A DNA stretch of 64,000 nucleotides, from assembly GCA_017475705.1 (NCBI GenBank), contig JAFVFB010000012.1:60525-124524 (forward strand). The letters run 5' to 3'. Numbering within the stretch: position 1 is the stretch's first letter; each line of letters begins with the position of its first letter. Below the pieces are notes generated by a model. The model saw only the letters and a list, made by a program, of their open reading frames with translations. It had not been told where the DNA came from and ran no database searches. Made by a program: the position numbers and the translations under genes. This document shows, piece by piece, positions 30,245 through 38,448 of the stretch. The DNA comes from Alphaproteobacteria bacterium. Lineage in GTDB: Bacteria; Pseudomonadota; Alphaproteobacteria; RF32; CAG-239.

Positions 30245-31372
30245 ATGGCAGATACAGAATTAGATAATTTCTTTTCAGCAGATTCGCAAACAAAAAAATC
30301 AACCACAGCAAAAAGTACTAAGCAAGAAGAAACCAATGATGACGATGGCTTTGATTTAGAAGATGAATTTTCCAAATTATTAAACGACTTTATTAACCAA
30401 GAAAATACCGCTCCTGTGCTACAAGATAAGTCAGATTCGGTATCAAATAGCCTGGATTCTCTGCAAACACCACAATGCCCTTTGGAATCAATGGTCACAG
30501 CTACACCAGTAGAAGAAACCTCAGCTTTAGATGATTTTGCCCAAACAGCACCAAACAATCAACAAGAAACGATGCTGGATGGTTTTGTTACAGAAAATAC
30601 CGCTGTTCAGACTGGAGCAGAACTAGATACTTTTATAACCAATGAACCTGCATCCTCAGAAATCAACGAAACAGATGGGCATTCAGGTCTAAAGCCGGAA
30701 GAACAAGAATTGGCACGTTCTTTGACCAACTTTCAAGATAGTATTTCCGCAATGGCAAACAAAAAGAACCTTAAATTGCCTAAAACAGACTATGAAGAAA
30801 CGATGTTAATGCCAAACTACAAACCGAGCGTAGGTAAAAAAATTGCTCAATATCTTTTAGACTGCTGGCCAATTATAAACAAATATGACCCTGATAATAT
30901 GAAGCGTCTAGCCCCCACGGCAACAGATGAGGAATATCTTTCTTTTGCAGAAAGCTTAAACGATACCTACATGCAGTTAGCCATAATTTCTTATGTGGAA
31001 ATCTTGATAAACATGGAAATATGCGAAGTTAGCTATGAACAGAAAAAAGCGGAAGTGCTAAAAAATCGTGCTAAAAGAGAGCTTTATGAAGAATATATGG
31101 AACTTCAAGAACGCAAAAAATTGTTTATAGAAAAACTTAAAGAAAAGAATTTTCCCATTGATGCAGAACGGCTGATTAGTAATTATTTTCGAGTCGCTCA
31201 AAAAGATCCAGATGGTTCTTTTGAGGCTCTAACCAAAAATCCTGCAACATTTTCGCCGATTCAAGTTGAAAAAATTCACCCAAAATTCTTTGGCTTAATA
31301 AAAGTAACACCTGAAGACGGAATAAAAGCAAACCAAAAAATAGGAAAGTTTATTAAAAATCTAAAAGTATAA
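30245..31372 (+). CDS. hypothetical protein with acidic disordered N-terminal half and helical C-terminal domain
   Basis: 375 aa. Strong RBS (AGGAGG). The first ~170 aa are D/E/S/T/Q-rich with no TM. First gene of the T4CP cluster. Confidence 0.5.
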   Translation: MADTELDNFFSADSQTKKSTTAKSTKQEETNDDDGFDLEDEFSKLLNDFINQENTAPVLQDKSDSVSNSLDSLQTPQCPLESMVTATPVEETSALDDFAQTAPNNQQETMLDGFVTENTAVQTGAELDTFITNEPASSEINETDGHSGLKPEEQELARSLTNFQDSISAMANKKNLKLPKTDYEETMLMPNYKPSVGKKIAQYLLDCWPIINKYDPDNMKRLAPTATDEEYLSFAESLNDTYMQLAIISYVEILINMEICEVSYEQKKAEVLKNRAKRELYEEYMELQERKKLFIEKLKEKNFPIDAERLISNYFRVAQKDPDGSFEALTKNPATFSPIQVEKIHPKFFGLIKVTPEDGIKANQKIGKFIKNLKV

Positions 31373-31403
31373 AATTTTTCATCGATTCGCATGTTTAAAG
31401 TGG

Positions 31404-31419
31404 ACAAACATTTGTTTGT
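31404..31419. promoter_or_regulatory. perfect 7-2-7 palindrome ACAAACATTTGTTTGT, candidate operator upstream of the J-like protein gene
   Basis: Read directly from the sequence. It sits just upstream of a -10-like TAATAT and the RBS AAGGAGG of the 31462 gene. Confidence 0.3.
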
Positions 31420-31461
31420 ATGCTAATATAACAGATATAAGACGACTCAAGGAGGCAAAAA

Positions 31462-35437: not shown

Positions 35438-35456
35438 TTATTTAATAGAGGAATAA

Positions 35457-37679
35457 ATGGTAAGAGAAAGAGGGAAAGAGTGGGAAGAATATGATAAAGC
35501 CGTCCGGTGGATGGCTACCACGTTTATCATATCTGTCGTGGTCGCAATGGTGCTGGTTTATTTGTCTCAGCCTATAGCCTATCTGGTGCAAAAAGGTGTA
35601 TCCAAAGAAAACGTTGATGTTGCAGTAAGATTTCTGAAAAAATCACTGGCAGATCCCGGATTTTTATATGATAGATATATAAGATGGTTCAAGCAAGCAA
35701 TGCGTTACAGTGGAGCTTTTAAGCCCAGCTTATGGATACCGATATTGCCATTTATAATGTTTCCACTGATATTAATTATTGGAGGCATTAAGTGTCCATA
35801 TAAATTCCAGTCCAATATTCATGGTTCTGCACATATCGCTACTTTAAGAGATATCGAAAAGATGGAACTGCTTGGCTTCGATGGATTTTGCATGGTTGTT
35901 GGCAAGTTCCAAGGTAAGATGTTGAAATTAAAAGAAACATTATCAACACTATGCTGTGCACCTCCTGGTACAGGTAAAACAGTAGGTATTGTTATTCCAA
36001 CAATTTTTAATTCTGAAGGTCTGAGTATCATTGTAAACGACCCAAAACCCGAGTTATGCTACAAAACTACGGGAGCAAGAAATAAAGTTGGTCCGGTATT
36101 TGTTATAAACTGGGGGAAAGAAGATAATCCAGAAACTGGTGAATACTATCCAAGCTGGAACCCACTTTCACCAGGGGCCTTGCCAATGCCTGGTCCAGCG
36201 CGAGATTTGTACGTAGATTCAATGTGTAATACGCTGGTAGAAGATCCCAAGGGTAATGCTGACCCGCACTGGTCAAAAACAGGTCGTAGTGCGTTGTGCG
36301 GTTTCATACATTTTATATCTTCAAAATGCGAGAGAGCTCTTGCTAATGAAAAGTTTATCCAAAAAATTTATGAAGGTTCACTAACAGCAGAAGACAAAGC
36401 AGAATTAATTAATTACTATAGTGACATGAGCATGGGTGGCCTGCGTACAAATGCCGCTCAAGCTATTTCAGATATACAAAATGATAATCTGACTATAGAA
36501 AATTATTTACCGATAGGGACATGGAATCTTCTACCGGAAAAATGGATAAATCATGAACCGTGTATGGCTATGATATTGGAATGGATAACCAGTTCACAAA
36601 TAGAGCAGGCTAATGATATTCGCCGCCGACTGGAAGAAGGTGACCAAATGGCTGCAATGGCAGACCCAATGCGAGATTTGCTAGATGCAGCAGTAGAAGA
36701 GGCGAACAATTATGGTTATTCCCGCCGCTGTGTAACGGAGCTAAGTGCCTTAAGTGCAATGCCGGATAAAGAGCGCGGTTCTGTTTTATCAACAGGTTTA
36801 ACCGGTATTGGTATATTTAAGAACTCAGCCGTCGTTGCCCGAACAAGCTTTTCTGATATCCAATTTAAAGATTTGCGAGGGATGAAAGACCCTGTCACTG
36901 GTGAATGGCGGCCAATTTCCGTATATCTTTCTGTAAATCAAACAGATGCGCAAGCCTTAAATCCTATCAGCGCAACATTCGTAGACTTGATGAGTGCTTA
37001 TTTAATTTCTAATCCACCTAATGCGGTTAATAAATCAGATGGCAAAATGGGGCCATTTCCAGTACTATTTGTGCTCGACGAGTTTCCGCAAATGCCAAAA
37101 TTAAAAGCGGTTATAGACGGTCCTGCTGTTGGTCGTGGTCAAAAGGTTGCATATTTATTGATAGGACAAGATTTAGGGCAAATTTCTGGGAAATACGGTA
37201 AGGATGACCTCGAAACAGTTATCTCAACCACGGCCTGCAAAGTTATCTTATCACAAAACAATGAACAAACCGCACAGCGTTTTTCAAAGATGATTGGTAA
37301 TAAAACAGTACAAACCACATCTTTTTCACGCAGTGAAGGAGGTATAAGCAACAAAGACTTTAATCCATTTTCTAAAAATGTAAGTTACCAATTGCAAGGT
37401 GTCTCAGCCATTAGTACCAATGACCTATTGAGTCTACCGATGCTTAAGCAAGTTGTTTTAATGCAAGGCTACATTGATACACCGATTATGGCAGATTCAC
37501 CTCGTTGGTATCTTGATAAAAAGATGAGAGAGCTGGCATCATTACCTCCATCGCCAAATGTTCCGGACTGGATTGTTGCTCAAAGAACAGATGAAAATGA
37601 AGATATACTGTCCAAACTTGGAATAGATTATGATCCTAATGCAGAAGAAGAGGAAGATTTTGAGGAAGAAGAAAGCTAA
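35457..37679 (+). CDS. type IV secretion coupling protein (VirD4/TraG family ATPase), orphan
   Basis: 740 aa with N-terminal TMs. Carries the HGSAHIAT motif (the family hGSArWA signature), Walker A APPGTGKTVGIVIPT...IVNDPKPE and Walker B VLFVLDEFPQMPKL. The C-terminal tail is acidic ([11 protein letters not shown]). Confidence 0.8.
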   Translation: MVRERGKEWEEYDKAVRWMATTFIISVVVAMVLVYLSQPIAYLVQKGVSKENVDVAVRFLKKSLADPGFLYDRYIRWFKQAMRYSGAFKPSLWIPILPFIMFPLILIIGGIKCPYKFQSNIHGSAHIATLRDIEKMELLGFDGFCMVVGKFQGKMLKLKETLSTLCCAPPGTGKTVGIVIPTIFNSEGLSIIVNDPKPELCYKTTGARNKVGPVFVINWGKEDNPETGEYYPSWNPLSPGALPMPGPARDLYVDSMCNTLVEDPKGNADPHWSKTGRSALCGFIHFISSKCERALANEKFIQKIYEGSLTAEDKAELINYYSDMSMGGLRTNAAQAISDIQNDNLTIENYLPIGTWNLLPEKWINHEPCMAMILEWITSSQIEQANDIRRRLEEGDQMAAMADPMRDLLDAAVEEANNYGYSRRCVTELSALSAMPDKERGSVLSTGLTGIGIFKNSAVVARTSFSDIQFKDLRGMKDPVTGEWRPISVYLSVNQTDAQALNPISATFVDLMSAYLISNPPNAVNKSDGKMGPFPVLFVLDEFPQMPKLKAVIDGPAVGRGQKVAYLLIGQDLGQISGKYGKDDLETVISTTACKVILSQNNEQTAQRFSKMIGNKTVQTTSFSRSEGGISNKDFNPFSKNVSYQLQGVSAISTNDLLSLPMLKQVVLMQGYIDTPIMADSPRWYLDKKMRELASLPPSPNVPDWIVAQRTDENEDILSKLGIDYDPNAEEEEDFEEEES

Positions 37680-38448
37680 ATCACTAACATCAGAAATACA
37701 TGATTTTTCGCTATCCACAGTACTAAAGAGTAGTGTAAAATTTGTACTACTCTATAAGCGAACATTTCTGTTTTGGTGTCTGATAAATTTTTCTTTTATC
37801 TATATTTTTTCTTTAATCCCCAATGGCTGGACAAATTCTTTAAGCATTTTATGGTTAATAGGGTATTACATATACTGGTGCATATTTATTCGATATATAC
37901 AGCAGCACACACCCTACTTTTCACTCATTCGTATCTTTAATGGGCTGATTCCAACAAGCAAAATAATGTTTATTAATATCAGCATATACTTAGTGATAAC
38001 CATTACACCATATATACCATTTTTCATGGGATTTAGAGATAAATACCTCGAATTTTTTGAAAAATATATGGAATTGATGCAAAGTCATGATTCGTTGCTT
38101 GGTACAAGCTTGTTTTATCTTTTTATGATTTTGATATCTCCTTACACCATAAGCCGTCCATATTTAGCATGGATATCATCACAAGTAGGTCGAAGCCGTT
38201 CGATAATGGATTCATACAAACGCAGTCGGTTTAATTATTGGAATTTTGTTTGCTGTGCTTTTGTAACAAGTGGTTTGTTTATTTTATCTTATTATATAGA
38301 CACCCTATATAAGCTCAATACAATGATGTACTTGCTGGCGATTCTTCCAGTATATTTCAACATAGTCTTTGTAAACATATATAAGGTGTTTTATCAGCAT
38401 AAAGCAAAAACTAAGGCAACAGCTGCAGAAATTCTTCTTCAGAGATAA
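37630..38448 (+). CDS. polytopic membrane protein, hypothetical
   Basis: 272 aa. K/R-rich N-terminus then about 6 TM. Overlaps the T4CP 3' end by 50 nt in another frame. Its 3' end converges on ligA. Confidence 0.4.

Follow-up and report, generated by a model that had tools for sequence, protein, structure and literature searches.

Locus organization

The window analysed here is a 64 kb stretch of the metagenome-assembled genome (MAG) of an uncultured gut alphaproteobacterium, and coordinates refer to this window throughout. Between rluD and ligA it carries six open reading frames (ORFs), g1 to g6, the fifth of which encodes a type IV coupling protein (T4CP). What is new at this locus is an undescribed chromosomal module, found order-wide, in which a VirD4-type T4CP stands with a membrane-tethered, NERD-like partner. 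The features of the locus are as follows (aa, amino acids; nt, nucleotides; TM, transmembrane).

29149-30132, minus strand: rluD (RluA family), one flank, with rpoH immediately beyond it
30245-31372, plus strand: g1, cytoplasmic protein with a disordered acidic half and a helical bundle
31401-31429, plus strand: promoter-like element 5' of g2 (TGGACA, 17 nt, TG-n-TAATAT; consensus scan)
31462-33594, plus strand: g2, long, charged, fast-evolving cytoplasmic protein
33598-34089, plus strand: g3, small membrane protein of 163 aa, paralogue of the g4 hairpin
34097-34125, plus strand: promoter-like element 5' of g4 (TTAACC, 17 nt, GATAAT; scan)
34145-35437, plus strand: g4, TM hairpin, linker and PD-(D/E)xK (NERD-like) domain
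35457-37679, plus strand: g5 (ORF5), VirD4/TraG-type T4CP
37630-38448, plus strand: g6, protein with 5-6 TM helices from a family without a name, a non-universal peripheral neighbour
38411-40525, minus strand: ligA (LigA), the other flank

An ORF check placed the six co-directional ORFs exactly where the initial annotation had put them, between an RluA-family rluD and LigA, and the NCBI protein records covering the region (MBR2273806-12), which belong to a contig of 183.8 kb, match exactly. The GC content is ~35% across the window, and that of the cluster equals that of its flanks. The other ~50 genes look like housekeeping genes (translations read, with a Pfam spot check) and include tol, lpxC, bamD, recN, tgt and RND efflux genes as well as suf, sucCD, lpxD, fabZ and bamA; no relaxase, VirB, integrase or transposase was seen among the translations of the 64 kb, which were read by eye and spot-checked with Pfam, in agreement with what had been stated before. 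The cluster also lacks tRNA or direct-repeat borders, the sole tRNA of the window lying 9 kb away and a repeat search having returned no direct repeats at its edges. With no integrase seen, no repeats, an unshifted GC content and the same position in 80 species, the earlier opinion that this is not an obvious integrated conjugative element (ICE) stands.

The coupling protein

The assignment of ORF5 to the VirD4/TraG family of T4CPs was upheld by three Pfam models, all above their cut-offs of ~20-22: T4SS-DNA_transf (PF02534; 1.1e-54, 186.5 bits), TraG-D_C (PF12696; 1.2e-22, 80.6 bits) and TrwB_AAD_bind (PF10412; 3.4e-19, 69.5 bits). Two N-terminal TM helices (aa 19-37 and aa 93-111; TM scan) precede a cytoplasmic nucleotide-binding domain with a Walker A motif (PPGTGKT, aa 169-175, nt 35961-35981) and a Walker B motif (VLFVLDEF, aa 536-543, nt 37062-37085). 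The all-alpha domain bears an insert of ~60 aa (aa 299-358), and the C-terminal tail is acidic. Both Walker motifs and the acidic tail are kept in 80/80 T4CP orthologues; the protein is complete and strongly constrained. It falls below every NCBIfam equivalog cut-off (VirD4 PRK13897, IncP TraG, Ti TraG, F TraD and CD1115), with 146 bits against a cut-off of 250 for CD1115, the best of them, and 131.6 against 728 for VirD4, and it has no phmmer match among PDB sequences.

Conservation across the clade

When one genome per GTDB species was scanned, relatives turned up in at least 291 species, the best 80 of which were analysed. Among these 80 the T4CP is 68-88% identical to that of the window, the gene order rpoH-rluD-g1-g2-g3-g4-T4CP is kept in every sufficiently long locus, and protein lengths and spacing are near-constant. 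Compared with the window proteins, the median identities are 72% (T4CP), 63% (RluD), 78% (RpoH) and 79% (LigA), the T4CP exceeding RluD in 63/63 loci. This synteny and the level of T4CP identity therefore mark the locus as a core one that is inherited vertically and kept by strong purifying selection. Overall, this chromosomal module is old and has passed vertically through a large clade of uncultured gut Alphaproteobacteria; it is not a mobile element. Nearly all of the best 80 relatives are labelled as gut or rumen Alphaproteobacteria MAGs, with labels including 'Acetobacter sp. 46_36', 'Azospirillum sp. 51_20' and 'Ca. Scatocola faecigallinarum', the last of which NCBI places in Rhodospirillaceae incertae sedis; the clade is known from human, ruminant, bird and insect samples.

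These results alter the initial annotation in several respects. The cluster had been described as inserted and lineage-specific, and a synteny comparison at the rluD-ligA junction in related Rhizobiales had been proposed; however, the block is syntenic beside rpoH-rluD in all 80 species-level relatives, so that the premise of a recent insertion fails, and the relatives are gut MAGs labelled Alphaproteobacteria or Rhodospirillaceae incertae sedis, not Rhizobiales. In the clade g4 always precedes the T4CP, and g3, g2 and g1 are also part of the module. The conserved unit is g1-g2-g3-g4-T4CP, five genes rather than the six proposed, and g6 is a variable neighbour found in only about half of the loci. 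The claim of a maintained functional unit rather than junk is borne out by the T4CP motifs, intact in every orthologue, and by conserved promoter-like boxes (see below).

The nuclease-fold partner g4 and its paralogue g3

The most informative partner of the T4CP is the nuclease-fold domain of g4, which had been overlooked. The protein begins with a TM hairpin (aa 4-22 and aa 66-84), followed by a K/R-rich juxtamembrane stretch and a disordered linker that holds an invariant acidic-aromatic motif, HALFNFDDDDFDLDFD (aa 180-195). An AlphaFold2 model based on a 49-sequence alignment shows the N-terminal helical hairpin and the disordered linker as well as a confident C-terminal α/β domain at aa 268-430 (nt 34946-35434), which has a divergent form of the PD-(D/E)xK (NERD-like) fold, a restriction-endonuclease fold common to MOB_C relaxases. 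In the orthologue alignment D292, D307, E309, K351 and Q368 are invariant, and K308 is likewise invariant in the clade and replaced by R in the outgroup; the acidic triad D292/D307/E309 is retained in the outgroup. A 25-aa insert, GDWLADEEKFNDEEPLWFSESSHRISPV, is near-invariant. By the positive-inside rule, as applied to the K/R-rich stretch after the second TM helix, the nuclease-fold domain is probably cytoplasmic, on the same side of the membrane as the ATPase of the T4CP.

Similarity of g4 to known families is faint at the sequence level. Window g4 has no reportable match to NERD (PF08378), 23/49 orthologues match this model weakly (best 3.4e-05), and g4 profiles gave no match among CloDF13 ORFs (hidden Markov model, HMM) or IMG/VR viral contigs and chance-level matches only among PDB sequences. 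The earlier remark that only the T4CP matches a recognisable family thus holds for sequence searches and fails by structure, where g4 has the PD-(D/E)xK fold.

The description of two paralogous membrane proteins was correct: the N-terminal part of g4 is paralogous to g3 (BLASTP 8e-07), the two having a WHFDI...W.SG motif in common, and the g4 HMM matches the g3 of locus L081 at 9e-20. The g3 protein consists of the hairpin only, plus a basic cytoplasmic tail, and its length hardly varies from ~163 aa in the 75 loci that have it.

The proteins g1, g2 and g6

Approximately the first 150 residues of g1 (aa 1-150) are acidic and disordered, with repeated L-D-x-F motifs and a conserved amphipathic helix at aa 38-51 (LEDEF..LLNDF), and aa 150-375 are modelled confidently as an all-helical bundle that resembles generic bundles only; searched against PDB sequences, the g1 profile gave chance-level matches only. 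For g2, an ORF of 427-727 aa lies between g1 and g3 in 67 loci, with a mean column identity of 12%, and its stop is 0-15 nt from the g3 start, or overlaps it, in most loci. No TM helix was found in g2 by TM scan.

The product of g2 had been called a J-like protein. Its J-like domain (aa 14-74) scores 18.8 bits with DnaJ against a cut-off of 27.8, and HPD is absent, KVKHKQDSD standing at the expected position; furthermore, a J domain occurs in only 2/68 g2 orthologues, that of the window and that of locus L008 (1.2e-16). Judged from these sequences the domain is a local add-on, and the label does not suit the family. A genuine J-domain protein is encoded elsewhere in the window (18208-20155, minus strand), adjoining a ParA/MinD-like ATPase and tgt. 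It matches DnaJ at 5.4e-19, has the HPD motif, a hydrophobic segment and a C-terminal domain, and is unrelated to the J-like N-terminus of g2.

A 33-nt imperfect DNA repeat occurs at 30337-30369, 32112-32144 and 34699-34731 and encodes acidic 'D-F-D-L' in g1, g2 and g4. A common acidic 'FDL..DF' motif of these three proteins was considered; the regular expression was not recovered across g1 and g2 orthologues and missed window g4 too. The idea of a shared motif was dropped as unsupported, not disproved, and the repeat may reflect composition.

The TM scan predicts 5-6 TM helices for g6, in line with the 6-TM protein described before. Because 50 nt at its 5' end coincide with the T4CP tail and the NCBI protein is a shorter version of 160 aa, the start of g6 is uncertain. 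The g6 family was found in 41 loci, immediately 3' of the T4CP in 32 and further downstream in 9 (just after an ispA-like gene in the examples read), the other loci being without g6; no Pfam family was found in 29 members. PADLOC and PHROGs searches with all six proteins returned nothing meaningful; with PADLOC the T4CP and g4 had no match, and g2 and g3 had chance-level matches (E 0.003-0.005).

Promoter-like elements and transcription units

In the g1-g2 spacer, TAGACA and TGnTAnnAT boxes are conserved in 23 close relatives while the surrounding sequence is variable, and in the g3-g4 spacer, TTGTTAAC and TATAAT boxes are conserved in 23 relatives. The TTG start of g4 and its GGAG ribosome-binding site are also conserved (23 close relatives), and no other conserved non-coding elements were seen in the two aligned spacers. 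Across the region as a whole, promoter-like matches are as numerous as expected from shuffled sequence (33 vs 32). The two perfect promoter palindromes of the initial annotation come down to one 8-nt palindrome (34107-34125), which overlaps the promoter-like element of g4 and is unconserved in relatives. With the boxes before g2 and g4 conserved and the palindrome not, these alignments suggest that the locus is transcribed as three units (g1; g2-g3; g4-T4CP with or without g6) rather than as a palindrome-controlled operon.

Relatives of the coupling protein and origin of the module

Searching with tblastn revealed no homologues of VirB4, B8, B9, B10 or B11 in the window and 83 loci (1.58 Mb), the rest of the genomes being outside the search. 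No VirB, relaxase or integrase was found within 10 kb in the 83 loci, as had been noted for the window's T4CP, and a left 10 kb contig extension held housekeeping genes only, with no VirB.

The best T4CP matches on 72,556 plasmids are VirD4 proteins of sphingomonad megaplasmids (Erythrobacter aureus, Sphingosinicella), which are 30% identical to the T4CP end to end over 724 aa (E 2e-109) and 34-38% identical across the parts matched by tblastn. These megaplasmid genes terminate virB4...B8-B9-B10-B11-virD4 operons, and HMMs of g1-g4 and g6 found no counterpart in two sphingomonad virB loci. In the virB-operon relatives virD4 is directly 3' of virB11, but this is never so in the clade loci.

A search of 1.84 billion representatives yielded 5,801 T4CP relatives, and contexts were read for the nearest ones outside the clade. 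In the outgroup (P0378, locus L086; T4CP identity 52%), a ribbon-helix-helix gene stands in front, followed by a g4 homologue that retains the acidic triad (HMM 8e-61), by the T4CP and by two small genes. In P0379 (49%) the T4CP is solitary, between ruvB/ybgC and tyrS, and in P0381 (40%) and P0390 (36%) each T4CP is overlapped at its start by a pentapeptide-repeat gene of ~410-440 aa among housekeeping genes (L089:8772-13042 and L093:8691-12187). Pentapeptide-repeat proteins mimic DNA. P0386 lies within a chromosomal virB10-B11-T4CP / virB9-B8-B4 cluster, and related T4CPs of ~40% identity stand in chromosomal virB clusters with housekeeping flanks (L091). Weak RNase_T-like extensions occur at the C-termini of P0385 and P0386, and P0385 also matches an intein (Hint) domain below the cut-off. 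In a rough neighbour-joining tree, the clade together with P0378 and P0379 adjoins virB-linked T4CPs.

From the outgroup contexts and the negative plasmid and virB results, the oldest core is thus g4-T4CP, to which g1-g3 were added in the clade. Likewise, the plasmid and virB relatives taken with the absence of VirB indicate that the T4CP descends from VirB/D4-type systems and that the local linkage was lost. The suggestion of a domesticated remnant of a conjugative element is therefore sound as an account of origin, the nearest virB-operon T4CPs being 30-38% identical, and unsound as a decaying remnant, the genes being intact and conserved.

A toxin/immunity-like pair in some loci

Twelve loci, found in a subclade and in the outgroup (L086), encode two conserved proteins directly after the T4CP.

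L081:12237-13284 and L086:12265-13334: pair of ~204 aa and ~149 aa, directly after the T4CP
L029, L030, L033-L035, L041, L043, L044, L049 and L050: pair of ~204 aa and ~149 aa, other loci

The ~149-aa protein belongs to the SUKH superfamily in 9/10 members. The ~204-aa protein has an invariant His/Asn pattern and a match to the pyocin AP41 HNH DNase profile that is not significant (E 0.68); its conserved N-terminal 'MWEWSN...SLL.AYDDL' region could be a targeting domain. Profiles of both proteins gave chance-level matches against PDB sequences. The pair, which is absent from most loci, the window included, looks like a toxin/immunity cassette by these family and motif assignments, the HNH-like one being tentative, and at the loci that have it the T4CP may serve protein export.

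Comparison with known systems

The VirD4 proteins of VirB/VirD4-type (MPF_T) type IV secretion systems (T4SSs) offer a first likeness: they are collinear with the T4CP over the full length and share its two-helix anchor, Walker A and B motifs, all-alpha domain and TraG-D_C domain. However, MPF_T VirD4 closes a virB operon on a conjugative-type replicon, whereas the window T4CP is a chromosomal core gene beside rpoH-rluD, with the 60-aa insert in its all-alpha domain and no vir gene within 10 kb.

DNA-transfer (Dtr) modules offer a second likeness. Those of CloDF13 (MobC/MobB, MobB being CloDF13's own T4CP) and the MOB_C type, for example TraX of pAD1, likewise have a restriction-endonuclease-fold protein beside a T4CP and no channel genes, and the ribbon-helix-helix gene in front at the outgroup L086 extends the resemblance. 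MOB_C relaxases are PD-(D/E)xK enzymes operating with T4CPs, and ribbon-helix-helix is a typical fold of relaxosome accessory proteins (PMC12857230); Dtr modules with PD-(D/E)xK relaxases depend on a T4SS in trans (PMC12857230, PMC4027160). The module at this locus differs in that g4 is membrane-anchored, whereas TraX has a winged helix-turn-helix domain, in that g4 shows no detectable sequence similarity to plasmid proteins, and in that the module has no oriT that could be found and occupies a fixed chromosomal position. Compared with NERD proteins (PF08378), the C-terminal domain of g4 has the same fold but a D...D-K-E pattern and the 25-aa insert.

The Legionella Dot/Icm coupling complex consists of DotL, DotM, DotN, IcmS, IcmW and LvgA. 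Like the present module, it combines a T4CP with dedicated membrane partner(s), soluble adaptors (whose assembly here is presumed) and prominent acidic motifs. However, no homology to DotM, DotN, IcmS or IcmW was found for g1-g4 and g6 with Pfam and NCBIfam, the membrane partner has a nuclease fold, and there are no Dot/Icm or VirB channel genes nearby. Systems working with no T4SS provide analogies only. HerA-NurA is a hexameric DNA pump with a nuclease, from the ATPase superfamily to which T4CPs and also FtsK/SpoIIIE belong, and archaeal Ced DNA import combines the CedB ATPase with the small membrane proteins CedA1/A2; the window ATPase is a VirD4-type T4CP and not HerA, FtsK or VirB4, and the nuclease fold of g4 is PD-(D/E)xK and not NurA.

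Functional interpretation

The reading that we favour, with a probability of roughly 0.4, is that the locus encodes a domesticated inner-membrane coupling complex at the cytoplasmic face with a role in DNA handling. The machine around the VirD4-type hexameric ATPase looks like one of essential grade. In the proposed mechanism, the hairpins of g3 and g4 would flank the transmembrane domain of the T4CP in the membrane, and the nuclease-fold domain of g4 would bind, and probably nick or cut, DNA at the mouth of the ATPase, taking the role of the relaxase in a mobilisation module; the T4CP would then pump the nucleic acid. The proteins g1 and g2 would act as cytoplasmic adaptors or scaffolds, and the J domain that g2 has in two species could recruit DnaK. 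The outward path, either a VirB-type channel elsewhere or none, would not be encoded at the locus, and the module would amount to a domesticated 'Dtr'-like station. DNA handling is favoured because the universal partner g4 has a nuclease fold with an invariant acidic triad, because MOB_C relaxases and channel-less modules of relaxase and T4CP are established (PMC12857230, PMC4027160), and because the wider orphan clade has other DNA-related partners, namely pentapeptide-repeat proteins and weak RNase_T-like extensions.

Several observations weigh against this interpretation. The nuclease activity of g4, predicted from sequence and model, is putative only, and as its motif runs D...D-K-E where the canonical order is D...(D/E)-x-K, the domain might be a binder with no catalytic activity. 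No relative of g4, MOB_C relaxases included, was found by tblastn on the 72,556 plasmids at E up to 0.01, no DNA-binding winged helix-turn-helix was found in g4, and no oriT-like element was identified. Because no channel genes lie within 10 kb in the 83 loci, the export route is missing from the data. In addition, g1 and g2 gave no informative fold or family, and a candidate toxin with a SUKH-type immunity protein after the T4CP points to protein, not DNA, substrates.

This last point leads to the best surviving alternative, which we nevertheless hold to be doubtful: a protein-effector coupling complex in which the T4CP and a g1-g4 adaptor/chaperone platform, comparable in function to DotL-DotM-DotN-IcmSW of Legionella, would feed toxins or effectors to a VirB-type T4SS elsewhere, aimed at bacterial competitors or host cells. 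The pair directly 3' of the T4CP in 12 loci, with its SUKH proteins and its His/Asn pattern and weak AP41 match, fits such a complex, as does the true J domain of the L008 g2, which suits the keeping of substrates in an unfolded state; T4CPs of ~40% identity also stand within chromosomal virB clusters with housekeeping flanks (L091). However, neither the 1.58 Mb searched nor the 10 kb extension contains a VirB homologue, the T4CP never takes the position directly 3' of virB11 that its virB-operon relatives have, and the pair is missing from most loci. Furthermore, the universal partner is a nuclease-fold protein and no known chaperone, and Pfam recognizes no DotM-, DotN- or IcmS/W-like family.

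The next alternative, which we rate as unlikely, is an autonomous machine independent of any T4SS, in which the exapted T4CP would form a stand-alone membrane pair of DNA translocase and nuclease; it might handle DNA on its way in or out across the inner membrane, clear DNA at the membrane or keep watch for incoming conjugative DNA. Four separate contexts, namely the 80-species clade, L086, L088 and L089/L093, place such a T4CP among housekeeping genes and have no virB gene within 10 kb of it, and the translationally coupled upstream partner varies with context, being g4, none or a pentapeptide-repeat protein. Conservation of the T4CP at housekeeping level and the predicted cytoplasmic location of both the nuclease-fold partner and the ATPase domain (positive-inside rule) also argue for this machine. 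On the other hand, the T4CP retains every channel-docking feature of VirD4, two-helix membrane anchor included. We know of no T4CP that acts without a T4SS, and the literature yielded nothing relevant on orphan T4CPs or on gut-alphaproteobacterial T4SSs. In its fullest form, a T4CP domesticated with g4, g3 and two adaptors into a T4SS-independent, housekeeping-grade machine that moves or processes DNA at the inner membrane throughout the clade (order level), the idea is improbable.

A defence module with a T4CP-like ATPase had also been suggested; as a system against phages or plasmids with a NERD nuclease as effector, it is disfavoured and very unlikely. Defence islands are patchy and mobile, but this locus has a fixed position and vertical inheritance in all 80 species at 68-88% identity; moreover, PADLOC found no meaningful match for the six proteins, and g4 had no match in the IMG/VR and plasmid sets. 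Finally, a decaying ICE remnant or a chance ORF cluster with no current function is scarcely credible: descent of the T4CP from virB-type VirD4 and the very fast evolution of g2 would suit decay, but the ORFs are intact and constant in length across 80 species, the ATPase motifs are intact in 80/80, g4 has near-invariant stretches and a conserved TTG start, the promoter boxes are conserved, and there is no integrase, att repeat or GC shift.

Other observations in the window

Two housekeeping genes of the window are split. The sucC gene (55285-56493, minus strand) occupies two ORFs, ATP-grasp_2 (266 aa) and Ligase_CoA (122 aa), with 39 nt between them; frameshift, assembly error and pseudogene are the three alternatives. 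An rseP-like M50 protease (62475-63611, minus strand) also occupies two ORFs, separated by a 129-nt gap, the N-terminal half carrying the start of a PDZ domain and the other ORF being the C-terminal half; this is possibly a second frameshift or assembly error in the MAG. A bacterial class A RNase P RNA lies at 9816-10208 on the plus strand (274.5 bits), and because of it the 73-aa ORF at 9979-10200 on the opposite strand is considered spurious. Downstream of infC, 41577-46046 (plus strand) encodes a fused glycosyltransferase of 1489 aa, a multidomain protein with two GT2 domains, a GT8 domain and a TupA-like ATP-grasp domain, which is unusual in size.

Implications

T4CPs are taken as substrate receptors of T4SSs and are normally borne by mobile elements. 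In this widespread gut lineage, a T4CP belongs to the core genes at a fixed position, is more tightly conserved than RluD and has four unnamed partners. If a T4SS is encoded elsewhere in these genomes, the module would be a coupling complex of a new type, one of whose subunits has a nuclease fold, and it would point to a reliance of these poorly known gut bacteria on secretion or DNA transfer. If there is no T4SS, the T4CP would have a new cellular role; should the T4SS-independent machine prove true, this would be the first T4CP family working outside type IV secretion, and sister orphan T4CPs with pentapeptide-repeat (DNA-mimic) proteins would do related jobs. In either case, five hypothetical protein families found in hundreds of gut MAG species gain names and testable domains, and a broader set of chromosomal orphan T4CPs is flagged.

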